A stretch of 64,000 bases of DNA from Christensenella sp. UBA1214. GTDB lineage: Bacteria; Bacillota; Clostridia; Christensenellales; CAG-138. Positions 2,419-51,527 of the stretch are shown piece after piece. The notes under the pieces were generated by a model. The model did not search any database and was not told where the DNA came from. It saw only the letters and a list, made by a program, of their open reading frames with translations. Position 1 is the first letter of the stretch. Each line of letters starts with the position of its first letter. The DNA lies in NCBI GenBank assembly GCA_002309375.1, contig DBXK01000012.1, forward strand, positions 84,009 to 148,008. Reading direction: 5' to 3'. Position numbers and translations under genes: made by a program.

Positions 2419-2447
2419 TTGAGAAATACGTTATAATTATGTATAAT
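2419..2447 (+). promoter_or_regulatory. Candidate sigma-A promoter for lon
   Basis: TTGAGA (2419-2424), 17 nt, TATAAT (2442-2447). The leader contains a GC-rich imperfect palindrome (GGCGGGGGAGAGCGAGCTCACTCCGCCC). Confidence 0.55.
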
Positions 2448-2500
2448 CACGATGAACGGCGGGGGAGAGCGAGCTCACTCCGCCCGAAAGGAACGAAGAT

Positions 2501-16300: not shown

Positions 16301-16619
16301 CGTCGAATGCAGCCTGGACATTGCTCAAATCGTTGATCAGTGCAACATCGAGAGCGGTATCCGCGGGCAGCGCGCCCTCGGGGGCGTCGACATAGACCGA
16401 TGTTCCGCCATGGGAATCATAGGACATGGTCTGCGCCGGATAGCTGGGCTTCGGATCGGGACGGGGGAAGAAGATATCCCACCAGCGATCGAACCAGCTG
16501 CTGAGCACGGTGGTACCGTTGTCGTCAACGACTCTTGCAAGAGCCGCCTGCGGCAGAACGGAAAGCGCCATGAACAGCACCAGCACAATGGAAAGGATCT
16601 TTGCTAAGCGCGTTTTCAA
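10386..16619 (-). CDS. Giant secreted surface protein (2077 aa) with multiple Listeria-Bacteroides (Flg_new / InlB B-repeat) domains
   Basis: TTG start at 16619, 7 nt after AAGGAGG, giving the signal peptide (M)KTRLAKILSIVLVLFMALSVLPQAALA. There are at least 8 repeats of the G(Y/F)xFxGW type (GYTFGGWYTD, GYMFEGWYLD, GYEFVGWYTD, GYTFIGWSG, GYIFNGWAKD, YTFTGWDT). No LPXTG, SLH or choline-binding anchor was seen. Confidence 0.85.
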   Translation of the reverse strand: MKTRLAKILSIVLVLFMALSVLPQAALARVVDDNGTTVLSSWFDRWWDIFFPRPDPKPSYPAQTMSYDSHGGTSVYVDAPEGALPADTALDVALINDLSNVQAAFDAASSERGHVYAALDINFLDQGKNEVEPRNPVTVTLENDVIADLEDLQLVHFKGSASELGSVEMEVIEDFYLSGTTITFEASDFSVYAVIGDGEEGERARLTVKFYNGETVIDTAYITPANVDLVGNIIPDPTVNQSEGDTKVFCGWIIGKPDYDSDDVLGDHTINYVRAAVVDRLTDTENPVQEGDVMKVYAMFFNYYIVSFLSENGDVTRFAEAVYTKENSLEYTIDQSYTPELDGYRFVGWQMVGTDTVYPNKTTITIMGDTTFRAKVQAGRWLIFEENPYNDDDHKGATYNPPVFCEDGVVTPAVKPADPTLPGYTFGGWYTDANFTTEFNFNQTIRANTTAYAKWTKNATAAYTILIWQQNLAGDGYDFVQSIKLIGNSDSAITTINPQGSGNSAYVRINGTNYSYTGFHYDHNDASGKTINCKGTTVVNVYFDRNEYTLTFQIPNTYTQSSNYGNWYKPSNSSTYYMLFYMGSDGNYYALDGSTSASTAYYYNGSNYVSVSNNRRYVVNTWKTADTITALYGQDISSEFPIDGAPEGVLWNPQNSTIFDSEHDVPALETMPAESTTFRMLYYGVEIDYNFYYYIEALPGTSNTVSYGGKNYTLHQTITIQGQPGVQSTKSEDMYDITGFTQGDAYPAYGTDGTVELTSTYDYSIKLYYTRNSYKILYQDGSYFDGNQIMIADGPDRGYLGESNDILYEDNITSYNKNGANYFKPAYSGYMFEGWYLDKTCTVAANFNKMPEGGVTVYAKWQRIQYRVFLHENDGTLPPGQDPDFRVDQGNMISNGEDVQITRDGYEFVGWYTDAEMKNSFNFNTKLYDNTDGMKDYPDSDRVNSDIPRYWVTGQLHLYAKWRYSLPGASGITILYNAVSYIQAPGNSIPGHYEGTTTEWTDPLPYTDGAYAIGRTASAPDSPDDYVFLYYEIMNADGTPSGKRVYPGQNFTVDYNDAVVSDVTPTGSKGVTGGMRAGEKYNEVSAPTAGKKYLLIYIANSTAYVVTTDYHDSDFGGRQPKISAITVSSNSDGTYSFSSSSYTLTDLLFTAEANGNYWRFKSVNASKGYLANAGGYVVYSGETTSSYTAVTDWTVSNGYFTSATTDSTYKYLYASTTYMDIDCDNSDSQASHFIFAELVENAASYTVTFKDWDGTVLSSEQVAEGGSATPPANPTREGYTFIGWSGNYTNVQQNETVTATYEKDATSGTEVWVPVTTIEPGEEYLIGRISSNGTVYLLMSYNPDASAAYYSGTYYYSYAIAAVRDSEGRVIGVSNDSIISGTMEHVKWVFTEVSGGYTIKGVYNNYLLRTSSSSYPNDLYPSSTTTVSVYNTWAWYNGRLRASIDSQYDRVIGTRINSDNQAVLYFQASTSSGVNLQLYKKEFIANVDTYTVKFYGWEGAELDSQTVEEGSCATAPADPTHTGYIFNGWAKDGDSTTLYTKAQVDAMPITADTTFTAHYTTESGNEVYTVTFVNWNGQILKTEYVEEGSGATAPAVPARENYTFTGWDTYAWENNVTEDLIVTANFQKTVTKQYTVTLRAVYGPKAVLEKTHITWHANNGTGDYKHSVDVLMNENIEIEYPEADPNSTGAKVDDLIWGEDDNLIWTDHVFLGWAKIAISDSATGSQVKPEYDPEDEAYVKERSFNEDDLFLKYVAPSDDSLHGTFYAKFEGEWTPVEYVAADELMPYNGMYAVWADVFYVYHSGTNEVEKIVRTTKAGETFDLANMTSEGYLYGGYYHDYLGKSDDFDAKALTYSAFSGADALNNGKWTNEQTDNGTGAKQYDGTNVTWSIDDAYKTTDEDAETGMAITPDAGTTYYIKEVPARQYLQPYLHYTYHLGYNDITNAWLISDIDDTNYLNTGFMIVDSNKKATVCNSLTVQNSNGGNSIRLTAKKVFRAQGVTGGLLTYREVINVSSGLNLLANGNSVLQFWVTPDGLLVTGNTCRIYNGLQSCDSIGYTLDSNNESLMMITDTFTPAD

Positions 16620-16719
16620 TGTACGTTCCTCCTTATGGTAGTAGATTGAAAAGATTAACGTTTTTATTGGGTCGGCCGCGGTAAGTCCATACCTAGGCAT
16701 ATTAACCCACATATTCATA

Positions 16720-16748
16720 ATAATAGCACAAGTCAATGTTTCTGTCAA
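16720..16748 (-). promoter_or_regulatory. Sigma-A promoter of the giant-protein operon
   Basis: Minus strand TTGACA (16748-16743), 17 nt, TATTAT (16725-16720), preceded by an A8 tract (UP-like). It lies inside the track's N-terminal extension of the ORF. Confidence 0.55.
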
Positions 16749-19560: not shown

Positions 19561-20457
19561 ATGAAGAGACTGCGCATATTGATCTTAATATTTTTCTTCG
19601 CGGTAGCCGCATTTTACGGCGCTTACTATCTGATCGATAAACTCACCACCGATAAGATCGCCCCTGTCATAAAAGCCGACAGCGACGCCATCGAGGTCAC
19701 GATCGACGCGACAGAAGCGGATCTGCTTGCCGGGATGTCTGCAACGGATAATGTGGACGGCGACGTTACAGACATGCTCGTTGTGACGTCCAAGAGCAAG
19801 TTTATCCGTAAAGGCACATTGCGCGTCAATTATGCTGCTTTTGATCAAAGCAGGAACGTTAAAACCTATTCACGCGAGGTTACATATACCGATTACGTTT
19901 CCCCGCAATTCAGTCTCAAAGCTCCGCTGCGCTTTGCATCGAGCAGCTCAAATCATGATTATCTAGCAAATATCAAGGCATATGACTGCCTTGACGGTGA
20001 TATCTCGAAAAAAATAAGGATCAGTTACGGCGATACTGTTGCAGTAAGCGATACGGTTACAGAACAAACGATCGATATCATCGTTACCAACAGCTACGGC
20101 GATTCAACGAGCCTTCAGCTCACAGCAAGTCTGGAGGATTTTGCAACATATAACCGTCTGTGCCCGGCTTTATCGGAATACCTCATTTATACAAAGACCG
20201 GAGTGATGCCGGATTTTCGTTCCCTGATCATCGGCGTTTGGGCAAATGGGAAAACTACCGAATTCAGCAGCGGCGATACAAATTTCACCGAACAAAATGT
20301 TTCCGTCTACAATATTCAAAACAGCGGCGCTTACAATACCGACGAGCATGCACTGAATATCAACGTACCCGGTGTTTACTATGTTAAATATTCGCTTGCC
20401 AATGAGCTCGGCGAAGCGCTCGGCACAACGACGCTGATCGTTATAGTGGAGGAATGA
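19561..20457 (+). CDS. Membrane-anchored protein with Ig-like (DUF5011-type) domains
   Basis: N-terminal TM helix (LRILILIFFFAVAAFYGAYYL), then repeats containing ATDNVDGDVTDMLVV and AYDCLDGDISKKIRI. Confidence 0.6.
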   Translation: MKRLRILILIFFFAVAAFYGAYYLIDKLTTDKIAPVIKADSDAIEVTIDATEADLLAGMSATDNVDGDVTDMLVVTSKSKFIRKGTLRVNYAAFDQSRNVKTYSREVTYTDYVSPQFSLKAPLRFASSSSNHDYLANIKAYDCLDGDISKKIRISYGDTVAVSDTVTEQTIDIIVTNSYGDSTSLQLTASLEDFATYNRLCPALSEYLIYTKTGVMPDFRSLIIGVWANGKTTEFSSGDTNFTEQNVSVYNIQNSGAYNTDEHALNINVPGVYYVKYSLANELGEALGTTTLIVIVEE

Positions 20458-20459
20458 GT

Positions 20460-22031
20460 ATGGAAAACAAGCAAAATACAGACTCATTACTCGACAGACT
20501 GGATCTATACAGCATATTCAGAGACATTATCCGCAACCTGTGGGCAATACTCCTCGGCGTCATTGCCGTTTGCCTGATCGTCAATATGATGAGCAAAGAA
20601 AAGTATGAGAGTACTTATTCGACAACGGCAACATTCATTGTCACTTCGCGTACGGGCGGAAGCTATGCAAACGGCAATCGGACAGCTGCCTCGACAATGG
20701 CGAGCAGTTATTCAAACATCCTCAACAGCAATCTTCTGAAGAAAAAAGTATGCGAAGATCTCGGCGTTTCGAGCTTTAATGCGAAAATGTCTACATCGGT
20801 CGTTAAGGACACTAACCTGATGCAGCTTACGATCACTTCCGACTCGCCGTGGAATACCTATAAAATAACTAGATCCGTTATGGAAAATGTTAAGGAGCTG
20901 ACCGGATACGTATCGAACGATATGGTAATGGAAGTGCTCCAACAGCCTGCCGTACCGTTAAAAGCTGACGGAATGTATTCGTCACGCAGACAAACGAAAA
21001 TTGCTATTGCGATTTCTTGTGCTGCTCTTACACTTGCTTTTATTTATCTTTCTTACCGGAAAAATACAATTAAAAACGAAAACGATATTGCAGATAAGCT
21101 TGAAACGCGTTCACTTGGAGTTCTTTATTATGACGGAAAACACAAGCTCAAGTCGCTTTTCAATTTCGGTAAGAAAAAGAAAAAACAAAAGCTTCTTGTT
21201 TCGGAAGTCACGGCAAGCTTTGAATTCGTTGAAAGAAACAAAAAGATCGCCGCTTTGATAGCGGCTCAGGCTAAGAATATCGGCGCAAAGGTCATTCTCG
21301 TTACAAGCGTTATGGAACACGAGGGCAAATCCACCGTTTCGGCAAACCTTGCTCTCTCGCTCGCTCAGCAGTCGAACGATGTGCTGCTTATAGACGGTGA
21401 TATGCGCCGCCCGACTTTGAATTCGCTGTTCCTTGATAAGGACGAAGGCAGCGACGAGACGAGCCTTGCAAAACTCCTGATGGGTGAGACCAGCATGAAA
21501 AGGGCAATGCGGTATGATGAGAAACGCGGCGTCTACCTGCTGCTAAATTATAAGAACTATCCCAATTCGACCGATATCGTTTCAAAGGATACGACAGCTC
21601 AGCTTATCGACGCCGCAAGGAACACCTTCGATTACATCATAATCGATACTCCGCCTATGTCGCTGATGGCGGATGCGGAAGTCCTTGCCGGCCTTGCGGA
21701 TATGAGTATCCTGGTCGTCAGCTATGATTTGGTATATGCTCAGGACCTGAACGATGCGATCGATTCGCTGAAGGACTGCCGGGCGCAGTTCGCGGGCTGC
21801 ATCCTCAACCAGGTCCGCACGCTGCCCGGAGAACGGAGGACCGTTGTGGGCCAGGGCGGTTACGGCAGATACGGTCACTACGGCCGGTATGGGCGCTACG
21901 GCAGATACGGCAAATACAGCAATTATGGGCGTTACGGCAATTACGGCAGATACGGAGCCTACGGATACTACGGTCACTATGCTGAACAGCCTGCAGAACA
22001 GACCGAGGAAGCGGAGAATCCGGAGGAGTGA
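20460..22031 (+). CDS. Fused Wzz-like transmembrane activator plus BY-kinase (Wzc-like), paralog 1, with an extended GRYG tyrosine tail
   Basis: Wzz N-terminus with 2 TM helices. The kinase core has Walker A VTSVMEHEGKST (atypical), A' LLIDGDMRRP and B IIIDTPP. The C-terminus is GGYGRYGHYGRYGRYGRYGKYSNYGRYGNYGRYGAYGYYGHY (15 Tyr). Confidence 0.85.
   Translation: MENKQNTDSLLDRLDLYSIFRDIIRNLWAILLGVIAVCLIVNMMSKEKYESTYSTTATFIVTSRTGGSYANGNRTAASTMASSYSNILNSNLLKKKVCEDLGVSSFNAKMSTSVVKDTNLMQLTITSDSPWNTYKITRSVMENVKELTGYVSNDMVMEVLQQPAVPLKADGMYSSRRQTKIAIAISCAALTLAFIYLSYRKNTIKNENDIADKLETRSLGVLYYDGKHKLKSLFNFGKKKKKQKLLVSEVTASFEFVERNKKIAALIAAQAKNIGAKVILVTSVMEHEGKSTVSANLALSLAQQSNDVLLIDGDMRRPTLNSLFLDKDEGSDETSLAKLLMGETSMKRAMRYDEKRGVYLLLNYKNYPNSTDIVSKDTTAQLIDAARNTFDYIIIDTPPMSLMADAEVLAGLADMSILVVSYDLVYAQDLNDAIDSLKDCRAQFAGCILNQVRTLPGERRTVVGQGGYGRYGHYGRYGRYGRYGKYSNYGRYGNYGRYGAYGYYGHYAEQPAEQTEEAENPEE
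21855..21980 (+). repeat. Imperfect 12-nt (GRYG codon) tandem repeat tract encoding the Tyr tail of kinase 1
   Basis: Reiterated TACGGCAGATACGG / TACGGCAATTACGG units are visible directly in the DNA. Confidence 0.8.
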
Positions 22032-22040
22032 TAAACGCAT

Positions 22041-23588
22041 ATGAGTGAAACTGCGGCAAATACGAATCATAATACTCAAAGGGATAACTTCAGCTCTCTT
22101 GCAAAAGATTTCCTCTTCAGCTTTAAGCGGCTTTGGTGGTTGGTCGTTCTTTTGACAGCATTCTTTGCGTTCATACTGTATTACAGAAAAAGCGTCAATT
22201 ATGTACCGCAGTATGTGCTTGAGAGGACATACGCTGTTGAGCTTGTAAACGGCGGTTCTTATGCCAACCGGAACACCGCCGAGCAGATGAGTAAAATATT
22301 CCCGTCCATTACGAAAAGCGGTGCGCTTTCCGATATCATTTCCGATGAGCTCGGAACAAACGGCGTCCCCGGAACAGTGAGCGTCAGCTGTATCAGCGGT
22401 ACGAATCTGCTGACGATAAGCGTCACTGCTTACGGGCCCGGCGTAGCTGCTCAGGTGATGGATTCCGTTGTCAAGAATTATCCGGATGTTGCACAATATG
22501 TTGTCGGCCAGACAAAGCTAATCGATGTCGATGTCAACGGAACCGCTTCGGTCATCGGCAAAACGAGCGTTACACGCGGATCGCTGCGTACCGGCGCACT
22601 GATCGGATTTGCGCTCGGCATGCTGATCGTTATTATCCGTTCGGTCGCATTCAGAACGATCCGCAGCGAGAGCGAACTCCATTCGGTGCTCAATCTATCT
22701 TGCCTCGGCACACTGCCCGCATGCCGCAGCCGCAGTAAAAGCAAGAATGAACGCAGCGAGATCAATATTCTCTTTGACAATAATCGAAGCAGCTATATCG
22801 AATCGATGCGCTTGATCCGCACAAGGCTCGAAAGGCAGCTTCAAGGGAAAAAAGTCCTGATGGTCACAAGCTCTGTTGCCGGCGAAGGCAAATCGACAGT
22901 AGCCGCCAACCTTGCGATATCCATGGCGCTCAAGGGCAAGCGCGTGATCCTTGTCGACTGCGACCTCAGAAATCCGACAGTCGGGAAGATATTCAACCTG
23001 AATGAAACGTATCCCGGCCTTGCTTCGGTGATCAACGGAAAAACAAGGCTTGAAGATGCGCTCGTTAAGATCGAAAGCGAAAAGCTGACGAACGGCATAA
23101 CGCTGCTTCCGGGTTCCGATAAAAAATCCCGTTTTGTCGAGATCCTGAGCAGTGACGAGATGGGCCGTGTTATCGAAGCCATGCGCACGAAGGCAGACGT
23201 TATAATACTTGACACACCGCCTTCGGCAGTGCTTGTCGATGCAATGATGCTTGTCAAGCATGTTGACGCGATCGCATATGTCATCATGAGCGATTACGCA
23301 CGCCGCCGCAGTATAATCGACGGTGTTGAAGAGCTTTCCGCAGGCGGCGTCCCGATTGCCGGCTGCATACTGAACGGCGGAAGAACCCACTCCGGCAAAT
23401 ACGGCGGCTACTACGGCAAATACGGACGCTATGGATACGGCCGTTACGGTTACGGCCGGTATGGCTACGGTTACGGTCACTATGGCGGATATGGCTACGG
23501 CAGCAACGGCGGTTATGAATCGGCGTCGAATTCCTCTTCGGAGCACAGAAGCAGCCGGTCGAAGAGAAAGCATTCATCCGGCAAATGA
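22041..23588 (+). CDS. Fused Wzz-like transmembrane activator plus BY-kinase (Wzc-like), paralog 2, with a Tyr/Gly tail and a Ser-rich basic extension
   Basis: Canonical Walker A VTSSVAGEGKST, A' VILVDCDLRNP and B VIILDTPP. The tail is GKYGGYYGKYGRYGYGRYGYGRYGYGYGHYGGYGYG (15 Tyr including a following GGY), followed by SNSSSEHRSSRSKRKHSSGK. Confidence 0.85.
   Translation: MSETAANTNHNTQRDNFSSLAKDFLFSFKRLWWLVVLLTAFFAFILYYRKSVNYVPQYVLERTYAVELVNGGSYANRNTAEQMSKIFPSITKSGALSDIISDELGTNGVPGTVSVSCISGTNLLTISVTAYGPGVAAQVMDSVVKNYPDVAQYVVGQTKLIDVDVNGTASVIGKTSVTRGSLRTGALIGFALGMLIVIIRSVAFRTIRSESELHSVLNLSCLGTLPACRSRSKSKNERSEINILFDNNRSSYIESMRLIRTRLERQLQGKKVLMVTSSVAGEGKSTVAANLAISMALKGKRVILVDCDLRNPTVGKIFNLNETYPGLASVINGKTRLEDALVKIESEKLTNGITLLPGSDKKSRFVEILSSDEMGRVIEAMRTKADVIILDTPPSAVLVDAMMLVKHVDAIAYVIMSDYARRRSIIDGVEELSAGGVPIAGCILNGGRTHSGKYGGYYGKYGRYGYGRYGYGRYGYGYGHYGGYGYGSNGGYESASNSSSEHRSSRSKRKHSSGK
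23394..23516 (+). repeat. Imperfect GYG/GRYG codon repeat tract encoding the Tyr tail of kinase 2
   Basis: Reiterated TACGGCCGTTACGGTTACGGCCGGTATGGCTACGG units. Confidence 0.8.
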
Positions 23589-23658: not shown

Positions 23659-24336
23659 ATGAGCGAAAAAAAGACGGACAAACAAAAAAGACCCGCATCG
23701 ATGGGCTTTTATAACCGTGTAGTCAAACGGACGGCCGATCTGCTGATCTCCCTGATCGCTCTTATCATTCTAAGCCCGACCATCCTTATTGCGGCGATCC
23801 TTGTGAAGCTGACCTCAAAAGGTCCGGTGATATTCAAACAGAAGCGCATCGGCAGAGGAGCACGGGAGTTCACGATCTATAAATTCAGGACGATGTATGT
23901 GAACAGCGAACACACCGGTTCGGGCGTTTACAGCGACGATAACGATCCGCGCATGACCAAGGTCGGGAAACTCCTGAGAAAGACTTCCATCGACGAGCTC
24001 CCTCAGCTTGTGAACATCCTGAAAGGCGATATGTCGCTGATCGGGCCGCGTCCGCCGCTGACGTATCATCCCTGGCCTGTATCGGAGTATTCCGAAGAGC
24101 AGCTCCGCATGTTTGAAGTCCGTCCCGGCATCACCGGCTGGGCGCAGACACATGGCCGGAAGGATGTTGAATGGAATAAACGTATCAAGCTGAATATCTG
24201 GTATGTGGATCATGTTTCCTTCATGCTGGATCTTCGAATATTTTTCATTACGATCGGCAAGGTTTTTACCAATGCCGACAACGAGAATAAAGGCGCGACT
24301 GTCACGGAAGAAGAAAAGGACGAGGCCGAAGCCTGA
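23659..24336 (+). CDS. Initiating undecaprenyl-phosphate sugar-phosphate transferase (small monotopic PGT, PF02397)
   Basis: One TM/re-entrant helix, then KGPVIFKQKRIGRGAREFTIYKFRTM...DELPQLVNILKGDMSLIGPRP. Confidence 0.9.
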   Translation: MSEKKTDKQKRPASMGFYNRVVKRTADLLISLIALIILSPTILIAAILVKLTSKGPVIFKQKRIGRGAREFTIYKFRTMYVNSEHTGSGVYSDDNDPRMTKVGKLLRKTSIDELPQLVNILKGDMSLIGPRPPLTYHPWPVSEYSEEQLRMFEVRPGITGWAQTHGRKDVEWNKRIKLNIWYVDHVSFMLDLRIFFITIGKVFTNADNENKGATVTEEEKDEAEA

Positions 24337-24357: not shown

Positions 24358-25188
24358 ATGCTTAAACTGATGTTTATCACAAATAACCCGAAAACTGCAA
24401 TGAGCGCTGAAGCAGCGGGGGTAGACCGCATCTTTGTTGACATGGAGTACATCGGCAAGGACGAGCGGCAGAAAGGCCTGAATACGGTGATGTCTCACCA
24501 TACGATCGAGGACGTTGCCGCTGTAAGGAAGGCTGTCAAAAAGGCTGAGCTGCTGGTCCGGGTGAACCCGATCCATGAAGCGACTTCCGACTATACGTCT
24601 TCGGAGGAAGAGATAAACGCCGCGATCGAAGCCGGCGCGGATATCGTGATGCTGCCGTATTTCAAAACCATCGATGAAGTCCGGCGCTTCATCGGGATCG
24701 TGAATGGCAGAGCGAAAGCTATGCTCCTTCTCGAAACTGAATCGGCGATGCAAAACGTGGACAGGATCCTTGAAATCGAGGGCATCGACGAGATCCATAT
24801 CGGCCTCAACGATTTGAGCATCGATCTCGGGAAAAAGTTTATGTTCGAGCTTCTTGCCGACGGCACCGTTGAGAAGCTCTGCCTTAAATTCCGCAAAAAG
24901 GGCATCCCGTACGGTTTCGGCGGCATTGCTTCGATCGGCAACGGCGCCGTTCCCGCCGAATACATTATCAAGGAGCATTACCGCCTCGGTTCGCGCGCGG
25001 CGATCCTTTCGAGAAGCTTCTGCAATACCGCCATGATAACCGACGAGGATATAATCAAGAGGGCTCTGCGCAAGGGCGTTGCGGAGATCCGCGAGCTTGA
25101 GGGTGAATGCGAAAAGCACAGCCGTTTCTTCTTTGAAAACGAGAGGAAGTTTATCTACCTTGTGGATCGGATCAGCAGGGGAGAATAA
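24358..25188 (+). CDS. HpcH/HpaI aldolase / citrate-lyase-beta superfamily protein embedded in the glycan locus
   Basis: 276 aa, TIM-barrel-like. AEAAGVDRIFVDMEYIGK...GADIVMLPYFKT...LLLETESAMQNVDRILEIEGIDEIHIGLNDLS matches the HpcH family pattern. Confidence 0.7.
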   Translation: MLKLMFITNNPKTAMSAEAAGVDRIFVDMEYIGKDERQKGLNTVMSHHTIEDVAAVRKAVKKAELLVRVNPIHEATSDYTSSEEEINAAIEAGADIVMLPYFKTIDEVRRFIGIVNGRAKAMLLLETESAMQNVDRILEIEGIDEIHIGLNDLSIDLGKKFMFELLADGTVEKLCLKFRKKGIPYGFGGIASIGNGAVPAEYIIKEHYRLGSRAAILSRSFCNTAMITDEDIIKRALRKGVAEIRELEGECEKHSRFFFENERKFIYLVDRISRGE

Positions 25189-25190: not shown

Positions 25191-26111
25191 ATGAACCTTC
25201 TGATCACAGGCGCATGGCAGGGCGCGAAAGAGCATCTGCCGGAAATCGAAGCTCTCGGCCACTCCGTTGTTTTCATGCAAATGGAGAAGGATGAGCTTCC
25301 CTGTGATCCGAAATGGGTCGAAGGCGTTGTCTGCAACGGCCTTTTCCTGCATCACCCGATCTCCGTATTCCCGAACCTTAGGTTCATCCAGCTCACCAGC
25401 GCCGGTTACGATCGTGTGGACATGGATTACGTCCGTGCCCACAGCATAGAGATCAAAAACGCAAGAGGCGTTTACAGCATCCCAATGGCGGAATTTGCAG
25501 TTTCCGGCGTGCTGCAGCTTTATAAACAAGCGCGGTTCTTTTATGATAACCAGAAGACGCACAGATGGGAGAAGCATCGCGGACTGATGGAACTGCACGG
25601 CAAAACAGTCGTGATCGTCGGCTGCGGAAGCGTCGGAACGGAGTGCGCAAAGCGCTTCGGCGCTTTCGGCTGCAGGATCGTCGGCATTGATATCATCCAA
25701 AGAGCTGACGAGGCATATGAACGCATCCTGCCGCTCGAAAAGCTCGACGAGCTGCTGCCTTCTGCGGATATCCTGGTTCTGACCGTCCCGCTCACGCAGC
25801 AGACCGAAAACCTGATCGACCGCCGTCGGCTCGGGCTGCTGCCGGCAAGAGCTGTCGTCGTCAATATCGCCCGCGGAAAGATCGCCGATGAAACCGCGAT
25901 CGCCGATCTCCTCACGGAGGGTCGACTTGCCGGCGCGGTAATCGACGTTTTCGGGAACGAACCGCTTCCGGCGGATTCGCCCCTGTGGGATGCACCCAAC
26001 CTGATCGCAACCCCGCATAACAGCTTTGTCGGGGAAGGGAATGCACATCGATTGAATATGTGCATTATTAAAACGGTTGTTGAGGGAGATTGTTGCAATG
26101 ATAGGCATTAA
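25191..26111 (+). CDS. D-isomer-specific 2-hydroxyacid dehydrogenase (NAD-binding)
   Basis: GKTVVIVGCGSVGTECAKR (Rossmann fold), VVVNIARG, ATPHNS. The last ~20 codons fall inside the low-GC island sequence. Confidence 0.85.
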   Translation: MNLLITGAWQGAKEHLPEIEALGHSVVFMQMEKDELPCDPKWVEGVVCNGLFLHHPISVFPNLRFIQLTSAGYDRVDMDYVRAHSIEIKNARGVYSIPMAEFAVSGVLQLYKQARFFYDNQKTHRWEKHRGLMELHGKTVVIVGCGSVGTECAKRFGAFGCRIVGIDIIQRADEAYERILPLEKLDELLPSADILVLTVPLTQQTENLIDRRRLGLLPARAVVVNIARGKIADETAIADLLTEGRLAGAVIDVFGNEPLPADSPLWDAPNLIATPHNSFVGEGNAHRLNMCIIKTVVEGDCCNDRH

Positions 26112-27183
26112 AGGAATCATATCAGGTTCTATTAATAGGATAAGCGAGAATCATTTGCGAAATGTTCATAGCAGAATGGCTTTAGCGAGCTTGAATGAAC
26201 ACGGGAAACAATGCCGTCTGACAAAAGAAGAGAATGATGCCATTAGTTGCCTTTGGAAGCAAATCGGTTATAGAGACAGAAATGAATGGCATCGCCTTTA
26301 TAAAGCCGTGAACAGTTTTGACGCACGATATGTACCGAATGACGTCTACGGCTTAGAACTTTTGCCGAGACTGAATTCAACGAAACTATTGGCTGCATGG
26401 GATGATAAAGCTTATTACCAAAGATTCTTTCCCTATATAAGGCAACCTTCCACTGTTGCATTTGTCATTGACGGTGCTTTTTATGATAAAAAGTATTCTG
26501 CTGTAGATGTTAGTTCTGTATCTATGATGCTTATAGACAGCTACGACAGGGTTATTATAAAACCATCTTACGGATTGGAAGGACGAGGAGTAGAGCTCGT
26601 TGAGACTAAAGAACATGACTGTTCTTCTTTAAAAGAAAAACTCTTATCATATGGAAGGAACTATGTTGTTCAGGAAGTCATCAGGCAGCATAAATCATTA
26701 GCTGTTTATAATAATAGTTCTGTTAATCCGATTCGAATAATGACATTAAGAATGAATGGTGTTATCCACTACCTTCATTCGACACTTCGGTTTGGTATTC
26801 CAGGTTCAAATACTGATATAAGTTTTATCGGCAAAAAAGAAATTGCAAGAGTTTGTGCAGTAAGCAATCAAGGAGATGTATCGAAGGTTTGGTTTGATAC
26901 AGATGGGAAAAAGCATTCAATATCGGACTTGAGGGTTTATGAACAAGAAAGGATTCCCGGATTTGGGAAAATAATTGATATAGCGACATCCGTACACGAA
27001 GGCCTTCAACATTTTGACTTAGTAGGTTGCGATTTCACGATTGACCAACATGAGGAGCCAATACTGATTGAATACAATGTATTCTGGCCCGGTATTATTT
27101 TCCCTCAGTACTGCCATGGTCCTCTGTTCGGCGAATTAACAGATGAATTAATCTCATACCTTGAGAATAAGCCAAAGAAATGA
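26098..27183 (+). CDS. Sugar-transfer-associated ATP-grasp family protein (1)
   Basis: Start at 26098 behind GAGGGAG. IIKPSYGLEGRGVELV...YVVQEVIRQH...CDFTIDQHEEPILIEYN is an ATP-grasp core pattern. GC is about 35-38%. Confidence 0.65.
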   Translation: MIGIKGIISGSINRISENHLRNVHSRMALASLNEHGKQCRLTKEENDAISCLWKQIGYRDRNEWHRLYKAVNSFDARYVPNDVYGLELLPRLNSTKLLAAWDDKAYYQRFFPYIRQPSTVAFVIDGAFYDKKYSAVDVSSVSMMLIDSYDRVIIKPSYGLEGRGVELVETKEHDCSSLKEKLLSYGRNYVVQEVIRQHKSLAVYNNSSVNPIRIMTLRMNGVIHYLHSTLRFGIPGSNTDISFIGKKEIARVCAVSNQGDVSKVWFDTDGKKHSISDLRVYEQERIPGFGKIIDIATSVHEGLQHFDLVGCDFTIDQHEEPILIEYNVFWPGIIFPQYCHGPLFGELTDELISYLENKPKK

Positions 27184-27212
27184 TTTAGATGTGACTTCGG
27201 GAGAACGAGAGA

Positions 27213-28193
27213 ATGCAACTTTCTGATATTACAAAAATCAAAGGTTATTATGATGATTTAATCAAAGCAGGAGACGGTTTGCTTCTGGAAAAGCATATCG
27301 GCGCTCAAGCTTTCACAATTAAGGCAATTATCAGTTTCGTAGTCTACGGAACCAGCTTTTCAGAGTTTGCCGGTTACGGATTCTATGGTAAAAAACGTAA
27401 AGAAAAAAGAAACTATATGACCAGACGGCATATGTTTCGTTTTTTTGATAAATACAACCCTGTGGAGTTCAGAAACAGAATTGGCGACAAATCACTGGCA
27501 GCACAGTATTATTCTGATTTCATGAAAAGGGAACAGTATGTGAAGAATGAAGGCTATGAAAAGTTCATTGAATTTTCATCACGCTATCGAGAGTTGTTTA
27601 TAAAAAAAGCAGTTGGATGGGGTGGCGAAGGCGCAAGAATTGAGAAAATTGAGTGCGCTGATGATGCCAGACATGTTTGGGAGACTCTCACTGACGAGGT
27701 TGTTGTTGAACCTGTGATTAAGAATCATGACGCCTTAAAAGAAGTGTACCCTGAATCTCTGAACACTATTAAACTAACGGTACTGCAAACAAAGAGTCAA
27801 CCGGTTGTTGTAACCGCGATTATTCGCTTCGGTAATAACACAATAGTTGACAATGTACATTCCGGAGGAATGGCTGCAGGCATCAATGTTGGATCAGGAC
27901 TTATTGAAACACCGGCAACGGATAAGCATTTTACAGAGTATAAGAATCATCCGATAACCAACAAAGCCATTTTGGGTATGACAATTCCGAAGTGGAACGA
28001 AATCAAAGAGCTTGCTATAGACGCTTCAAGAGTAACCCCTCAATTGCGTTATACTTCATGGGACATTGCTTTGACAAACGAAGGCCCTGTAATGATTGAA
28101 GGAAACTGGGACGCAGAGTTTTATATGGAACAAAGGCTGTATAACAGGGGACATAGAAAACTGTTTACAGGTATTCTGGAAGGAAGAGTATGA
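27213..28193 (+). CDS. Sugar-transfer-associated ATP-grasp family protein (2)
   Basis: FIKKAVGWGGEGARIEKI...VVEPVIKNH...DNVHSGGMAAGINVGSG...SWDIALTNEGPVMIEGNWDAEF matches the ATPgrasp_ST-like pattern. Confidence 0.7.
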   Translation: MQLSDITKIKGYYDDLIKAGDGLLLEKHIGAQAFTIKAIISFVVYGTSFSEFAGYGFYGKKRKEKRNYMTRRHMFRFFDKYNPVEFRNRIGDKSLAAQYYSDFMKREQYVKNEGYEKFIEFSSRYRELFIKKAVGWGGEGARIEKIECADDARHVWETLTDEVVVEPVIKNHDALKEVYPESLNTIKLTVLQTKSQPVVVTAIIRFGNNTIVDNVHSGGMAAGINVGSGLIETPATDKHFTEYKNHPITNKAILGMTIPKWNEIKELAIDASRVTPQLRYTSWDIALTNEGPVMIEGNWDAEFYMEQRLYNRGHRKLFTGILEGRV

Positions 28194-29740
28194 CCGATTG
28201 GAGCCAGAGTTTATATACCTTTGGATATCTGCTCACTGATGATGAGGAGACGGCTTTGGGTTGCCTTCCAATCCTGCTTGATTGGCAAACGGAGCATATT
28301 TGCAAGTATACTCTGTTTGTACATCCTGAACAGAAGTATCATATCCACTCTGCATCAGATTGCGTTTATTTGCTGGTCGGACATGCATATGATCCTTTTT
28401 CAATGATATCTGATGAGCGCATTATTCTTGAACATCTTGCTTCTATGAAATCGGAGTCGGAAGAGTATCAGAACAGCTTCGATCAATTGACAGGTGTTTT
28501 TTTCTACGCGATTATACGTAATAATGCTATTGATGCCACTTGTGATTGCGCTGGGATGCTTGGGGCTAATTATGCATTGATAAACGGAAAAACATGCTTT
28601 TCTGCATATAGTCAGATGATTGCGGAAATATATAGCCTTAAAGAAGATCCGTACGTAACAAAGCTTAAAAAATCAAAGCTGTTTCACTGGTATGGGTGGT
28701 ATCTTCCGGCAGACTCGACCTCATACGCCGAAGTAAAACGCATAGTCCCCAATACTGAGGTTAGAATCACGGATGAAGTCCAAATCCGTAGGTTCTATCC
28801 GCGTAAGGCATATTCTGAAGTCGATAGTGAAACTTATAATACTCAAGTTAAAACGATCAGCAGGATTATGAATAATAACATGCGGCTGATTGCGCAAAAA
28901 TGGGATCGCCCTTCGATCTCACTTACTGGAGGAACCGACAGTAAAACAACACTGGCATGCGCAAAAGATGTTCAAGACAAATTCGCGTATTTCAGCTATA
29001 TTTCGCTGCCACGTGAAGAAGTCGATGCGCTTGCAGCTCGTAAGATTTGCGAGGCATTGGAACTTCAACACCGGATTTTCAGCATAGACACAAATCCTAA
29101 GAAGTATCCGGACTATGATGATGTATCTGCTTTGCTTGAACGTCATTATGAGTTTTTAGGCAAGGCAAACTCAAACGATATTTGTAAAAGGATCGTACTA
29201 AAAGAACAATTCGAATACGATGTAGAGGTGAAATCCTGGGTATCGGAAGTAGCACGTGCAAGCCGCTATAGAAGATATGGTAAAAAAAGATTCCCGAAAA
29301 AGATTCGTGCAAGAATGCTGACATCCATGTATAAAGTCTTTATAATAGACCGAGGGAATGCAGTCCGAACTGATAAACGATTCAGAGATTACCTCAACAA
29401 TACGGGACTAAGGCAGGCAATAAAGGATACAGGATATCCTTGGACTGAATTCTTTGTTTGGGAGATCGTTTTTGGAGGTTGGGGAGGGCTCGCTCTGACA
29501 GGTGAGCACATGCTTACGAATGAAATAACCGTTCCGTATAACAACCGTGCCTTATTGGACCTTATGCTGCGTACTCCGTTGGAAAAGCGGATGAATGATC
29601 AACTGCATAAAGACCTGATCCATGTAATGGACATACGAATCGAACAGCTTGGCATTCATGTTGTTAATGGAAATGAAACCAAGCAAAGAGAATTGTTTGA
29701 GCGGATTTATTTCCAGATTAACAACATCCTACCATGGTGA
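28190..29740 (+). CDS. Asparagine-synthetase-like PP-loop (adenylating) enzyme lacking the N-terminal catalytic Cys
   Basis: 516 aa. ISLTGGTDSKTTLACAKD (SGGxDS-type PP-loop) sits at about residue 240, as in AsnB-fold enzymes. The N-terminus is MTDWSQ, with no Cys2 nucleophile. Confidence 0.5.
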   Translation: MTDWSQSLYTFGYLLTDDEETALGCLPILLDWQTEHICKYTLFVHPEQKYHIHSASDCVYLLVGHAYDPFSMISDERIILEHLASMKSESEEYQNSFDQLTGVFFYAIIRNNAIDATCDCAGMLGANYALINGKTCFSAYSQMIAEIYSLKEDPYVTKLKKSKLFHWYGWYLPADSTSYAEVKRIVPNTEVRITDEVQIRRFYPRKAYSEVDSETYNTQVKTISRIMNNNMRLIAQKWDRPSISLTGGTDSKTTLACAKDVQDKFAYFSYISLPREEVDALAARKICEALELQHRIFSIDTNPKKYPDYDDVSALLERHYEFLGKANSNDICKRIVLKEQFEYDVEVKSWVSEVARASRYRRYGKKRFPKKIRARMLTSMYKVFIIDRGNAVRTDKRFRDYLNNTGLRQAIKDTGYPWTEFFVWEIVFGGWGGLALTGEHMLTNEITVPYNNRALLDLMLRTPLEKRMNDQLHKDLIHVMDIRIEQLGIHVVNGNETKQRELFERIYFQINNILPW

Positions 29741-29743
29741 CAC

Positions 29744-29796
29744 GTCTCGAACATGAAAAGCAAATATAGCTTCAGAATTAAACGTTGTGTTCGAGA
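29744..29796. repeat. 10-bp perfect inverted repeat at the low-GC/high-GC junction
   Basis: GTCTCGAACA (29744-29753) and TGTTCGAGAC (29787-29796) with a 33-nt AT-rich loop, 4 nt after the stop of the AsnB-like gene. Confidence 0.6.
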
Positions 29797-29830
29797 CTGA
29801 ATTAATAACGAGAGAGACTGGACACTCAAA

Positions 29831-30973
29831 ATGAAGATCCTTTACACCGCAACCGTTCTGTCGCATATCTGCCAGTTCCACCTGCCGCACATGAAAGCGC
29901 TGCAGGAAGAGGGCTGGGAGGTCCACGTTGCCGCGCACGACAATCTTGCGGTCAAGAACGGACTTGCACTCAAATACTGCGATAAGTTCATCGAGATGCC
30001 TTTCGACCGCTCGCCGAAGAGCCCAAGCAATCTTAGGGCGAAGAAACAGCTCAAAAAGCTGCTTGAGGAAGTGCATTACGACGTGATCCTCTGCAATACG
30101 CCTATGGGCGGCATTATCACCCGCCGGGCCGCAAAGAAAACGCGCAGACAGGGGACGAAGGTCATTTACATGGCCCACGGATTCCACTTCTTCAAGGGCG
30201 CGCCGAAATCGGGCTGGCTCATCTACTACCCGATCGAGAAGCACATGGCGAAGCTTTGCGATCTGCTTATCACCGTCAATGAGGAGGATTACGCTCTCGC
30301 AAAGGAGCGCTTCGGAAAGCGTACGAAAGTCGCCCATATCCACGGCGTTGGCGTCGACGAAGAGCGCTTCCATCCCTCGACGGCGGAGGAGCAAAGAGCA
30401 ATGCGTAAGGCTGAGGGCCTCGACGAAGATGATTTTGTGATCCTCTGCACCGGCGAGCTGAACGAAAACAAGAACCAGAGCACGCTGATCCGCGCGGCGG
30501 CCATGGTGCGGGACAGGATCCCGAAGCTGAAGGTCCTTCTCGCGGGCAACGGTCCGAAAGAGCAGGAGCTGCGCGATCTGACAGCCTCTCTCGGCCTCGG
30601 GGAAGTCGTGAAGTTTCTCGACTATCGTCCGGATCTCGAGCGCGTCACCCCTGCAGTCGATCTCGTCGTTTCCTGCAGCTTCCGCGAAGGTATGCCGCTG
30701 AATATTATCGAAGCGATGCTTTGCAAAAAGCCCGTTGTCGCTTCGCATAACAGGGGGCATGACGAACTGGTGACGGAAGAAACCGGAGTGTTGATCGATC
30801 CGCTTGATGTCGAGGGTTTATGTTCGAATATAGCCAATCTTGCGGAGAATAAAAAACGGATGAAGATCATGGGCGAAGCTGCATTTGTGCGCGCCCGATA
30901 TTATTCTGTTGGATATGTAAAGCAAGAGCTTTGGGGCGTCTTGCTTGATGCTATAAAATTCAAAAGGTTATAA
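29831..30973 (+). CDS. Glycosyltransferase family 4
   Basis: 380 aa with a GT-B fold and the C-terminal motif SFREGMPLNIIEAMLCKKPVVAS. Confidence 0.85.
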   Translation: MKILYTATVLSHICQFHLPHMKALQEEGWEVHVAAHDNLAVKNGLALKYCDKFIEMPFDRSPKSPSNLRAKKQLKKLLEEVHYDVILCNTPMGGIITRRAAKKTRRQGTKVIYMAHGFHFFKGAPKSGWLIYYPIEKHMAKLCDLLITVNEEDYALAKERFGKRTKVAHIHGVGVDEERFHPSTAEEQRAMRKAEGLDEDDFVILCTGELNENKNQSTLIRAAAMVRDRIPKLKVLLAGNGPKEQELRDLTASLGLGEVVKFLDYRPDLERVTPAVDLVVSCSFREGMPLNIIEAMLCKKPVVASHNRGHDELVTEETGVLIDPLDVEGLCSNIANLAENKKRMKIMGEAAFVRARYYSVGYVKQELWGVLLDAIKFKRL

Positions 30974-30975: not shown

Positions 30976-32091
30976 ATGAAGGTTGGCATACTGACACACT
31001 ATAACGTGTACAATATGGGCGCTCAGCTGCAGATGATGTCTCTTGAAGCGTACCTAAAAGAGCTTGGGCATGAAGTCTCAATACTCACTTATGAAAAGAA
31101 TTTCGACTTTTTAGAGGGCGAAAAGGATCGCAACAGCGCATCATGGAAAGCGCTGCCGTTCTACATTAAGCACTATCTTTTTGAAAAAGGCCCCGGTCTT
31201 ACGTTGTTTAACTACCGCAAGGTTAAGGCGATCAATCGTTCATTAGCATCACATAGTTTTGCGCCTTTTGACAAAAGCGGATGCGATGCTGTCATAATCG
31301 GCAGCGACGAAGTGTTCAGCATAGACGTTGGTCTTAACAAAATGATGTTTGGTTATGGCCTTGGCGGCGTCCCGGCTATAGCGTATGCTCCGGCATTCGG
31401 AAGGACCACTGAAGACATTCTCAAAGAGCATGATTGTTGGCAGCTTGTCAGCGATGGACTGAAAAGCATGTTTATGCTATCAGCCCGGGATTCACATACC
31501 CGCGATATGATAAAAAACATGGCAGGACGAGATGTGCCGCTTGTATGTGATCCTGTACTGTTGTATAATGGAAGTGCTTTCGAAGGCACGGTCAAGCCGA
31601 TAGGCAAGCCCTATTTGCTCGTGTATTCATATGATTCGAATATGACCGATAAGGACGAGATACGAGCTATCCGCTCTTATGCCGAGAAACACCACATGAT
31701 TACAGTCTCGGCCGGGACTTACCATTCCTGGTGTGACAGGAACATCGTTTGCGGTCCCGTGGAATGGTATCGGTATTTCAAAGAGGCGGAATGTGTGGTG
31801 ACAGACACATTCCACGGCAGCGTTGTCGCAATGAAAAACCACTGCAATACCGCTGTATTCATCCGTAAGAGCATCAATGCTTTTAAGCTTGAGTCATTGC
31901 TTGATGTGACAGGAATGAACGAACGGCGGTTGAGTGCAATTACAGAACAAGAGCTTGAACGAGTCTTGTCTGATTCAATTGATTATACTGAAACAGACAG
32001 ACGAATTCGTGAACTTGCCGCTCGAAGCGCCGCTTACCTTACGGATGCCTTGGAACGTTTAAAAAATGGAGAATGCAACAAAGAAAACTGA
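30976..32091 (+). CDS. Polysaccharide pyruvyl transferase family protein
   Basis: MKVGILTHYNVYNMGAQLQMMSL...VVTDTFHGSVVAM matches the PF04230 pattern. Confidence 0.8.
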   Translation: MKVGILTHYNVYNMGAQLQMMSLEAYLKELGHEVSILTYEKNFDFLEGEKDRNSASWKALPFYIKHYLFEKGPGLTLFNYRKVKAINRSLASHSFAPFDKSGCDAVIIGSDEVFSIDVGLNKMMFGYGLGGVPAIAYAPAFGRTTEDILKEHDCWQLVSDGLKSMFMLSARDSHTRDMIKNMAGRDVPLVCDPVLLYNGSAFEGTVKPIGKPYLLVYSYDSNMTDKDEIRAIRSYAEKHHMITVSAGTYHSWCDRNIVCGPVEWYRYFKEAECVVTDTFHGSVVAMKNHCNTAVFIRKSINAFKLESLLDVTGMNERRLSAITEQELERVLSDSIDYTETDRRIRELAARSAAYLTDALERLKNGECNKEN

Positions 32092-33286
32092 ATATCCGTG
32101 CTCTGGCTGCGGGGCATGCGCTGCAGTGTGTTCAAGCAAAGCGATAACTCTTGAGCAAGATGACGCCGGATTCCTTATTGCTTCTGTTGATGCTGCCAAA
32201 TGTGTGAACTGCGGAATATGTGTAAAGGTCTGCTATAGGTTTTTCAACAACGATGCCGGAGCTGACCTTCGTAAAGCAAAACTATATGCGGTTCAAAGCA
32301 CTGACGGCGAAACATTAAAGCGTTGCTCATCCGGCGGCCTTGCACATGAACTTGCGTTGGATGCAATACGCGGCGGCAGCAAGGCGATCGGAGCCGTATA
32401 TGATACAGCGACCGATCGTGTCTTTCACCGGATAGTTGTTGACGAATCAGGCGTTGCGGAACTCGACGGTTCAAAATACCTACAAAGCGATACGCAGGAA
32501 GCGTTTTCAAAAGCGATACACGAGGCAGTACGGGACAAAGCTGCACGCTTCATCGTATTCGGCACACCTTGCCAGATCGCGGGTATAGCCAAAGCCGGCG
32601 ATTTGCTCGACATTCGGGAGCAGTTTCTGCTCACGGAGATATTCTGTCACGGGGTGCCGCCTTATGGACTTTGGCAATACCAGCTGCAGCGGATGCGAAA
32701 AAAGCTGCGCGCTCAAAGACTTGAGAAAGTGCTTTTCCGCAGCAAAAAAGATGGATGGCACAGCTACTGCATACGCGCGGACGCCAACGGGAAAAGCTTT
32801 TTCGGCTCTCGTGAAAGAGAACCTTTCTGGCACGTGTATTTCGAGAACGTGCTATTGGGCGACGCCTGCATGACCTGCCGCTTGCGCAAGGAGATTTCAC
32901 TCGCAGATCTAAGGATCGGTGATTATTGGGGAGTACGCTACCAAAATCGAAACGACGGCGTTTCAGCAGCTTTTGCCTGCACTGTTCGCGGTAAAGCAGC
33001 TATCGATAGACTGCTCGCGGACGGGCGGCTTACGGAATTGGATCCGGGAACTCCGGATGAAATGCTGCGTGCGCAGAATATGGAGGGATACTCCGTTCAA
33101 AAGCCGCATGATGAAAGCATGCAGTTGCTGCGGCATGGAGCATCCATACCGGAAGCGGTGCGTGCATATCGTCGGCATGATTCCGTAAAACGCAGGATGA
33201 AAAGGACTGCTTTGCACATTGCCGGCATTTTGCCGGGCGGGTTGCGAGGACGGCTAAAAAGAACAAAAGGCAAAATAATGCACTGA
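32066..33286 (+). CDS. FrhB/FdhB-like (coenzyme F420 hydrogenase beta family) Fe-S flavoprotein
   Basis: N-terminal 2x[4Fe-4S] ferredoxin motifs CSGCGACAAVC and CVNCGICVKVC, then an FrhB-like core (VFGTPCQIAG). It overlaps the pyruvyl transferase gene by 26 nt. Confidence 0.8.
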   Translation: MENATKKTEYPCSGCGACAAVCSSKAITLEQDDAGFLIASVDAAKCVNCGICVKVCYRFFNNDAGADLRKAKLYAVQSTDGETLKRCSSGGLAHELALDAIRGGSKAIGAVYDTATDRVFHRIVVDESGVAELDGSKYLQSDTQEAFSKAIHEAVRDKAARFIVFGTPCQIAGIAKAGDLLDIREQFLLTEIFCHGVPPYGLWQYQLQRMRKKLRAQRLEKVLFRSKKDGWHSYCIRADANGKSFFGSREREPFWHVYFENVLLGDACMTCRLRKEISLADLRIGDYWGVRYQNRNDGVSAAFACTVRGKAAIDRLLADGRLTELDPGTPDEMLRAQNMEGYSVQKPHDESMQLLRHGASIPEAVRAYRRHDSVKRRMKRTALHIAGILPGGLRGRLKRTKGKIMH

Positions 33287-39939: not shown

Positions 39940-40027
39940 TCCGTTATCTATCAGCGAAAACAGCATCATCGAACAAAAGTGCTATGATACGATTTGCCCG
40001 TAAGGCTTGCAAAAGGAGAATGACGAT

Positions 40028-42196: not shown

Positions 42197-42207
42197 AGAG
42201 GACGATT

Positions 42208-43023: not shown

Positions 43024-43025
43024 AA

Positions 43026-44027: not shown

Positions 44028-44046
44028 ATGTTAAGGGAATAATCCA

Positions 44047-45357: not shown

Positions 45358-45397
45358 CGGTTGATTCTTAATTAGATGATTGTCGGAGGTGCTTTAA

Positions 45398-45823
45398 ATG
45401 GAATATAAGATTTTCAATCTGCCTGTACGCGCAACAAATGGTTTGGGAAATCTTTCCTTTTTGGAAGCCGAGGTAGATACGCCTTTCCAGATCAAACGCA
45501 TTTACTATATCTATGATGTGCCTACAGGCACGCAGCGTGGAGGTCATGCTCATAAGCGGCTTCAACAGCTCCTGTTTTGCCCGAATGGCGTGATTGAGAT
45601 CATTTTGGCAGATGGAGAAGAGAGTGCTTCCGTTATGCTGGATCGGCCGAACAAAGCGTTGTTGATAGGACCCGGACTGTGGCGCGAGATGCTGTGGCAT
45701 ACAGGAGGAGCAGTACTTTGTGTTGCCGCTTCGGAGCATTATGATGAGAATGATTATATCAGAGACTACGACGCGTTCCTGGAGTACATTAACGAAAAGC
45801 ATAGTGAGGTAAGTGATGATTGA
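45398..45823 (+). CDS. fdtA: dTDP-4-keto-6-deoxyhexose 3,4-ketoisomerase (FdtA/QdtA, WxcM-like cupin)
   Basis: [49 protein letters not shown]. Confidence 0.85.
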
Positions 45824-46910: not shown

Positions 46911-46911
46911 A

Positions 46912-48423: not shown

Positions 48424-48435
48424 GGAGGTTTGTAA

Positions 48436-50233: not shown

Positions 50234-50241
50234 GGTGAGAT

Positions 50242-51522: not shown

Positions 51523-51527
51523 ATATA

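Follow-up and report, generated by a model that had tools for sequence, protein, structure and literature searches.

The cps and O-antigen loci contain low-GC, serotype-specific centres bordered by conserved genes; recombination within these conserved borders swaps the centres, and AT-rich variable centres occur in many glycan loci. Beta-lactam synthetase (BLS) and carbapenam synthetase (CarA) have kept the two-domain fold of AsnB and have no glutaminase activity; they adenylate a carboxylate and form a C-N bond with a nitrogen that is not derived from glutamine. In the HS:2 capsule of Campylobacter jejuni, the TupA-like ATP-grasp enzyme Cj1438C activates a carboxylate of the glycan and couples it to an amine as an amide (PMC11800379). 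The uronamide-forming amidotransferases WbpS, WbqG and PGN_1234, which belong to eps_aminotran_1, convert a sugar carboxylate into an amide (PMC7468200). In the biosynthesis of E-64, a small acid is condensed successively by an ATP-grasp enzyme and an amide bond synthetase (PMC12568646). Here we analyzed a 64-kb stretch of contig DBXK01000012.1 of Christensenella sp. UBA1214, derived from cow-rumen metagenome material (the window), in which a low-GC block carries genes for two ATP-grasp ligases (AG1 and AG2) and a Cys-less AsnB-fold PP-loop protein (PPL). We propose that this block is the filled slot of an exopolysaccharide initiation backbone, and that its three predicted carboxylate-activating, ATP-dependent ligases tailor the repeat unit, a reading to which we assign a probability of roughly 0.5.

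A low-GC variable segment in a glycan locus is ordinary, and glycan-tailoring amidoligases are a known kind of enzyme. We know of no earlier description of a slot that holds from zero to three ligases, and the surface polysaccharides of rumen and gut Clostridia are, to our knowledge, almost unstudied.

A variable slot in a conserved backbone

One genome per species was scanned with a profile of the PPL family, which gave 79 loci, mostly in Clostridia, and the neighbors were identified by tblastn with the window proteins. The usual setting of PPL consisted of a priming transferase (Bac_transf), an HpcH-like aldolase, a 2-hydroxyacid dehydrogenase, PPL itself and a GT4 glycosyltransferase. Both aldolase and dehydrogenase were found within 7 kb in 43 of the 54 PPL-seeded loci flanked by 5 kb or more on each side. 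A reverse scan of metagenome contigs was seeded with the HpcH-like protein and covered the best 80 of at least 573 matches; among the 44 loci with at least 4.5 kb downstream, the dehydrogenase was present in 32 and PPL in 8. PPL thus usually has the aldolase and dehydrogenase nearby, whereas the reverse is rare (43/54 vs 8/44), an asymmetry that fits a tailoring enzyme dependent on the product of the backbone.

The conserved backbone has four genes, in the order Bac_transf, HpcH-like, dehydrogenase and GT4, with a variable slot between the last two. The slot was empty in many loci, and in the eight of these that were checked the GT4 match started 5-55 nt past the end of the dehydrogenase match. 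It held PPL alone in many others (L006 among the close relatives), AG2-PPL in L005, L007 and L008, and AG1-AG2-PPL in the window, L015/L086, L169, L170 and a contig of GCA_016648615. Candidate cultured carriers of the PPL-only state are Terrisporobacter glycolicus (L084), Ruminococcus sp. JL13D9 (L053), Lachnospiraceae bacterium M18-1 (L065) and Faecousia intestinalis CLA-AA-H192 (L020). In dozens of loci, the slot is flanked strictly by the priming transferase module on one side and the second glycosyltransferase on the other. PPL is far more widespread than AG2, which adjoins the PP-loop gene in the clade nearest to the window, and AG2 is in turn more widespread than AG1, the most sporadic of the three. 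The three block genes are not one unit.

Two loci illustrated how the slot changes. In L089 the backbone is 68-82% identical to that of the window, whereas its PPL belongs to a different clade (38% identity) and no ATP-grasp gene is present; this mismatch shows that slot content can be replaced. In L170 a three-gene Fnl-like sugar-nucleotide block (Polysacc_synt_2, Epimerase and Epimerase_2; 1062-4414, opposite strand, GC at third codon positions (GC3) 0.79-0.83) has been inserted after the dehydrogenase and ahead of AG1, and its presence marks this slot as a hot spot of recombination. The exact PPL protein occurred on four cow-rumen or related contigs with identical arrangement, all of the three to four same-species contigs carried the block, and exact-protein look-ups of PPL and GT4 showed no other arrangement. 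The same look-up of the HpcH-like open reading frame (ORF), as delimited here, returned no record.

Two further observations were made in these loci. L040, L043, L045, L051 and L057 carry tandem or nearby PP-loop paralogues with 32-37% identity to that of the window, and such copies may perform two successive adenylation-type ligations without ATP-grasps. In the cultured species Terrisporobacter glycolicus (L084/L085, 5702-7606), a 634-aa PglF/CapD-like UDP-sugar 4,6-dehydratase is encoded directly upstream of the backbone, a hint at a 6-deoxy-N-acetylhexosamine derivative as priming sugar in this species. No PglF/CapD-like gene adjoins the backbone of the window.

The three ligases of the filled slot

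AG1 (26098-27183, + strand) encodes an ATPgrasp_ST ligase of 361 aa, and AG2 (27213-28193, + strand) encodes one of 326 aa. In agreement with the earlier note on this DNA, which had recognized two ATP-grasp proteins from the sequence alone, AG1 and AG2 scored 91.7 bits (6.1e-26) and 150.3 bits (8.4e-44) against PF14397, respectively, both above the gathering cut-off of 31.4 bits; between themselves they share only 22% identity. The ATG of AG1 at 26098 has GAGGGAG 7 nt upstream as ribosome-binding site, and the gene overlaps the end of the dehydrogenase gene, including its stop codon, by 14 nt. The motifs IIKPSYGLEGRG and LIEYN were read from the AG1 sequence, and in AG2 the residues K131, G137, G138, E166, D284, E296 and N298 are invariant in 29 homologues. 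Judged by these residues, both proteins keep the Lys/Gly-loop and the D...ExN metal motifs. No match to ATPgrasp_TupA was found for either protein at E ≤ 0.01.

Since phmmer searches of AG1, AG2 and PPL against the PDB gave only noise (DOCK10, TRF1 and colicin), a fold search was needed. The AG2 model, with a predicted local distance difference test score (pLDDT) of 92, consists of an ATP-grasp core and a helical N-terminal domain of about 110 aa that had no match. By Foldseek, the core is closest to Ddl, RimK, D-Ala:D-Lac ligase and LysX, with E-values from 3e-8 to 1e-6, and the model superposes on Ddl and RimK.

PPL (28190-29740, + strand) is a predicted PP-loop adenylating enzyme of 516 aa, whose start codon overlaps the stop codon of AG2 (ATGA). 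The AsnB fold, the TGGTDS loop and the missing N-terminal Cys had all been noticed earlier, and all were found here: the model (pLDDT 93) shows the full two-domain AsnB fold, TGGTDS lies at residues 246-251, and the N-terminus reads MTDWSQ. SLTGGxDS is invariant in the family (S244, T246, G247, G248, D250 and S251), and the N-terminal Cys is absent from PPL and from all 27 aligned homologues. In the N-terminal domain, G64, E76 and D119 are conserved. Over the full length, the best Foldseek match was CarA (5e-16), and TsnB9, BLS, human ASNS and E. coli AsnB matched with E-values up to 1e-10. The sequence scores remained below threshold, with 19.9 bits for Pfam Asn_synthase (PF00733, cut-off 21) and 29.4 bits for TIGR01536 (cut-off 267), and NCBIfam gave no eps_aminotran_1 match at E ≤ 0.01. 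The 605 homologue clusters of PPL carry no informative name. Without the N-terminal Cys, PPL cannot draw ammonia from glutamine in the manner of AsnB and would need another nucleophile. The model thus presents PPL as an AsnB fold with an inactive glutaminase domain, like BLS and CarA.

Pfam, fold and motif evidence together bear out the earlier view of three ATP-dependent ligase-type enzymes within a glycan locus, all of them intact. The three are assigned here to superfamilies whose members use ATP to activate a carboxylate and then join it to a nucleophile, and their catalytic motifs are intact; PPL would do so via an acyl-adenylate, and AG1 and AG2 via acyl-phosphates.

The genes of the backbone

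All four backbone genes are on the + strand. The first (23659-24336) encodes a small Bac_transf priming phosphoglycosyl transferase of 225 aa (PF02397, 3.3e-68; GC3 0.63), and it adjoins the HpcH-like gene in most of the related loci. The second (24358-25188) encodes an HpcH/HpaI-like class II aldolase homologue of 276 aa (PF03328, 2.3e-14; GC3 0.68) of the metal-dependent, pyruvate-type class. Its family profile matched the aldolases YfaU and HpaI at 1e-10; R68 and D152 are invariant and E126 is nearly so, at the expected catalytic positions, and by this alignment the protein retains the Arg/Glu/Asp set of class II pyruvate aldolases. A role as phosphoenolpyruvate (PEP) mutase or phosphonate enzyme was considered and set aside, because PEP_mutase matched only at 9.5e-4, below the cut-off, whereas the class II aldolases matched at 1e-10.

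The third gene (25191-26111) encodes a D-isomer-specific 2-hydroxyacid dehydrogenase of 306 aa (PF02826, 2.8e-52; GC3 0.65), and its last ~22 codons are already within low-GC sequence. It had been suggested that the tail of this protein is short and was replaced by the block. However, 28 residues follow TPHNSF, compared with 21-31 in about 55 homologues, and the tail fits the family consensus VGxGNxxRLxxxI; normal length and homology rule out truncation or replacement. In nearly all homologues, the last 66 nt have a lower GC content than the preceding 300 nt, regardless of the downstream gene. Hence, the fall of GC inside the tail is a family trait and not a private recombination scar. The fourth gene (29831-30973) encodes a GT4 glycosyltransferase of 380 aa (PF00534, 1.4e-33; GC3 0.68), whose orthologues (43-78% identity) come after the slot in most loci.

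Composition and edges of the block

The low-GC island described in the earlier note is real and sharply bounded, and the GC counts given there for four 60-nt lines (36, 20, 22 and 40 of 60) were exact. The maximum-likelihood GC change points are at 26040 and 29845, and the 3.8 kb enclosed by them contain 40.0% GC, compared with about 55% in the flanks. In segments of 300 nt, the GC content is 0.57-0.61 at 25.6-26.1 kb, 0.35-0.44 across 26.1-29.85 kb, and then 0.55-0.61; when the 300-nt GC steps were ranked over the 64 kb, the left edge was the third-sharpest and the right edge the eleventh. The signal is located at third codon positions, with GC3 values of 0.33, 0.36 and 0.40 for AG1, AG2 and PPL, respectively, against the 0.63-0.68 of the four backbone genes. 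No stretch of this length in the whole window is lower in GC. The variable part of this glycan region, at 31-54 kb, is for the most part at 38-48% GC with GC3 of 0.37-0.53; the block is the extreme low-GC stretch of the window, yet others exist.

Of the usual marks of a genomic island, the block shows a deviating composition with sharp edges. Its three tightly packed + strand genes occupy it entirely, with no integrase or transposase among them, and no tRNA was found in the window. No meaningful repeats flank the block, and the only repeat that spans the flanks is a 12-nt direct repeat, CGAGACTGAATT (26366 and 29792). It was rejected as an insertion scar since one copy lies inside AG1; by our own estimate from the block length, about 0.5 such 12-nt matches are expected by chance. 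The perfect 10-bp inverted repeat that had been taken to mark the right boundary does exist (29744-29797, + strand), within the 90-nt spacer between PPL and GT4 and thus local to the right side, but nothing sets it apart. A T-run is missing, the folding z is -1.45 (16 of 200 shuffles fold as well), the corresponding spacer of relatives lacks the repeat, and about ten hairpins like it are present in the window. These results excluded it as a terminator or an element end, and it is probably incidental.

Age and history of the block

A sharp discontinuity of GC and GC3 is what a recent import would show, and one explanation is that the block is a recently acquired three-gene cassette which amidates uronic acids of the polymer, like the Campylobacter glucuronamide ligase or WbpS. 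Its claim of recency fails on the distribution of the trio. The same three genes, in the same order and with the same GC3 dip, are present in at least four other contigs of rumen and gut Clostridia at 64-73% identity, a conservation across the clade that the earlier note had itself set against recent acquisition. The five nearest loci of the window (L005-L008 and L015) are identical for Bac_transf, the HpcH-like protein, the dehydrogenase, PPL and GT4. Within the nearest clade, PPL distances track those of GT4 (r = 0.92) and of the dehydrogenase (r = 0.71), correlations that are partly driven by two outgroup clusters around a star-like clade. The best non-self identities among 5.8 billion proteins were 73% for PPL, 71% for AG2 and 66% for AG1, and no close or recent donor was detectable among them. 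Since the nearest relatives are the same for the block and the backbone genes, and there is no close donor, the block is old. On these comparisons it is an accessory common to the clade rather than a private or recent import, and what stands of the proposed acquired cassette is its accessory nature on a deep time scale, as seen from the empty slots and L089. For genome scanning, a sharp GC island in a glycan locus can be an old, clade-wide accessory and need not be a recent import.

The GC3 dip recurs in every high-GC host. For AG1, AG2 and PPL, GC3 is 0.37, 0.38 and 0.54 in L086 (neighbors 0.80-0.85), 0.38, 0.40 and 0.45 in L169 (neighbors 0.56-0.62), and 0.49, 0.58 and 0.61 in L170 (neighbors 0.69-0.73), and the slot genes of L005, L007 and L008 dip similarly. 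Over 50 loci, GC3 of PPL is on average 0.10 below that of its neighbors. AG1 is lowest and PPL highest in all four trio loci measured (the window, L086, L169 and L170), which matches the order of rarity of these genes and mildly favors a staggered arrival. Regarding the origin, we infer that the block would have entered this type of locus from a lower-GC source before the lineage of the window split from its known relatives, and would since have been inherited along with the backbone, while slot contents were swapped by recombination over longer times.

The low GC might instead not be foreign at all, with the slot genes at a gene-specific compositional equilibrium that results from weak selection on codons or from the relaxed constraint on accessory genes. 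The dip in every high-GC host, which survives about 30% protein divergence, would be expected in that case, as would the average deficit of PPL. GC3 is 0.37-0.50 in other variable genes of the locus, the weakly conserved tail of the dehydrogenase is likewise AT-rich in nearly all homologues, and variable centres of glycan loci are often AT-rich. However, a GC3 step of about 0.3 within one tightly packed operon, the agreement of the GC3 order with the order of rarity in four trio loci, and the replacement of slot contents indicated by L089 argue for arrival from outside, and we consider the equilibrium explanation somewhat unlikely. Had the block simply ameliorated by mutation while co-diverging with the backbone to about 70% protein identity, the GC3 gap should be gone; its persistence calls for either continued exchange from lower-GC lineages or such an equilibrium, and both fit.

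Proposed chemistry of the slot

Regarding the substrates and the order of the ligations, we infer the following scheme. First, the aldolase and the dehydrogenase would make a 2-hydroxy acid from pyruvate, which would become a carboxyl-bearing substituent of the first sugars, early in the assembly of the repeat unit. Second, PPL would join an external amine or amino acid in amide linkage to the carboxylate of this hydroxy acid, or to another carboxylate. Third, AG2, together with AG1 where it is present, would add further residues, and the decoration would grow with the number of ligases in the slot (0, 1, 2 or 3).

As judged from gene content, the target carboxylate is probably the hydroxy-acid substituent rather than a uronic acid. 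No UDP-glucose dehydrogenase was found among the window ORFs scanned, which include the whole glycan locus at 17-58 kb, and the uronic-acid target named in the earlier note is possible but without support here. Amidation of uronic acids is documented for the ATP-grasp enzyme Cj1438C (PMC11800379) and the AsnB-like WbpS (PMC7468200), and all three block enzymes are predicted to activate carboxylates, as a uronic-acid cassette would require. AG1 and AG2 are not TupA-like, though, and PPL is not an eps_aminotran_1 member and has no glutaminase Cys. With the old trio, the shared nearest neighbors and the want of a close donor, mobility genes, tRNA and meaningful flanking repeats added to this, a recent uronic-acid cassette is very improbable.

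The ligases could also act on soluble small molecules, producing a cytoplasmic conjugate of hydroxy acid and amino acid or a short peptide, which another enzyme then transfers to the polymer or which serves elsewhere, such as in a cell-wall peptide. Structurally, AG2 is nearest to small-molecule or peptide ligases (Ddl, D-Ala:D-Lac ligase, RimK and LysX) and PPL to small-molecule enzymes (CarA, BLS and TsnB9), the dehydrogenase resembles VanH-type enzymes at sub-threshold scores, and the E-64 precedent is a soluble pathway. In contrast, the slot contains no obvious conjugate transferase, its strictly kept position after the priming module and ahead of the second glycosyltransferase points to the glycan, and Cj1438C demonstrates that an ATP-grasp enzyme can act on a glycan-bound carboxylate. 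We regard soluble substrates as unlikely.

Several points weigh against tailoring of the repeat unit by the slot ligases. The backbone is absent from 11 of the 54 PPL loci. In many loci it has no ligase beside it, and its product thus does not require amidation. The slot frequencies are rough, because the reverse scan took in the best matches only and because tblastn with AG1 and AG2 can overlook distant ATP-grasps. The proposed link between the hydroxy acid and the ligases is drawn from gene neighborhood as its sole basis, and the literature search returned no paper on PF14397/ATPgrasp_ST. Likewise, searches for an aldolase, a dehydrogenase and an asparagine synthase together in polysaccharide loci, and for ATP-grasp enzymes with amide-linked amino acids in O-antigens, returned nothing relevant.

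If tailoring of the repeat unit by the inferred chemistry is correct, it would provide a first function for two uncharacterised families, ATPgrasp_ST and the Cys-less AsnB-fold family, the latter with more than 600 sequence clusters below the Pfam threshold. Slot content would then be a simple genetic read-out for surface-glycan decorations in abundant rumen and gut Clostridia. A more specific version, which we consider doubtful, is that backbone and slot form a modular builder of glycan-anchored short peptides, in which the ligase count (0-3) equals the number of ligations that extend a pyruvate-derived hydroxy acid near the reducing end of the repeat unit. Under this version, in gut and rumen Clostridia alike, slot content would set the length and the identity of the side chain, a large unannotated family of Cys-less AsnB-fold glycan amide synthetases would have PPL as its founding member, and ATPgrasp_ST would gain its first assigned reaction.

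Other features of the window

Upstream of the backbone, a 2120-aa ORF (10386-16748, - strand) with at least six Listeria-Bacteroides (Flg_new) repeats lies just before the glycan region, and its repeats suggest that it is probably a large surface protein. Two tandem ORFs of 525 and 515 aa (20454-22031 and 22041-23588, + strand) resemble chain-length regulators and tyrosine kinases; both have unusually long C-terminal tails rich in Tyr, Gly and Arg (YGRYGRYGRYG...), and the doubling is kept in the closest relatives. Downstream of GT4, a polysaccharide pyruvyl transferase and an overlapping ORF for an FrhB-like 4Fe-4S protein of the F420-dehydrogenase beta type (30976-33286, + strand) form a pair that is kept right after GT4 in L009, L010, L015, L073 and L169.

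A second sub-locus (40007-54085, + strand; GC3 0.37-0.61) resembles teichoic-acid systems that depend on an ABC transporter. It encodes EpsG, LicD, Caps_synth, two Glyphos_transf proteins, a DegT aminotransferase, a GNAT-GT2 fusion (46900-48423) and an ABC-2 transporter pair; the window therefore carries two glycan systems back to back. It is followed by RmlA (54097-54984), RmlB (54994-56013) and a single 481-aa ORF (56026-57471, + strand) in which RmlD (dTDP-4-dehydrorhamnose reductase) is fused to an RmlC (3,5-epimerase) domain.

Comparison with known systems

Like AG1 and AG2, Cj1438C is an ATP-grasp enzyme of a surface-glycan locus. It belongs to a different Pfam family, whereas AG1 and AG2 match only ATPgrasp_ST; it is fused to a GT2 domain, whereas AG1 and AG2 are free-standing; and its target, glucuronate, has no genetic support in the window, which carries two ATP-grasps beside a PP-loop enzyme. 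WbpS, WbqG and PGN_1234 are, like PPL, AsnB-fold PP-loop enzymes of glycan pathways, from which PPL differs in lacking an eps_aminotran_1 match and an N-terminal Cys and in scoring under the Pfam Asn_synthase cut-off.

BLS, CarA and TsnB9 are the best structural matches to PPL. PPL is only 12-13% identical to them, with TM-scores (template modelling scores) of 0.5-0.6 in a comparison of the folds, and they work in antibiotic pathways, whereas PPL is found in glycan loci. The E-64 pathway shares its logic with the proposed scheme, in which two different ATP-dependent enzymes that form amides extend a small carboxylic acid in turn; the pathway is fungal and soluble and makes a natural product, and the resemblance is one of mechanism only. 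With cps and O-antigen loci, the window shares variable glycan genes below the GC content of the genome that are bracketed by conserved genes. The difference is that the variable part here is a small slot inside a conserved initiation module, and that it holds ligases rather than glycosyltransferases and polymerases.

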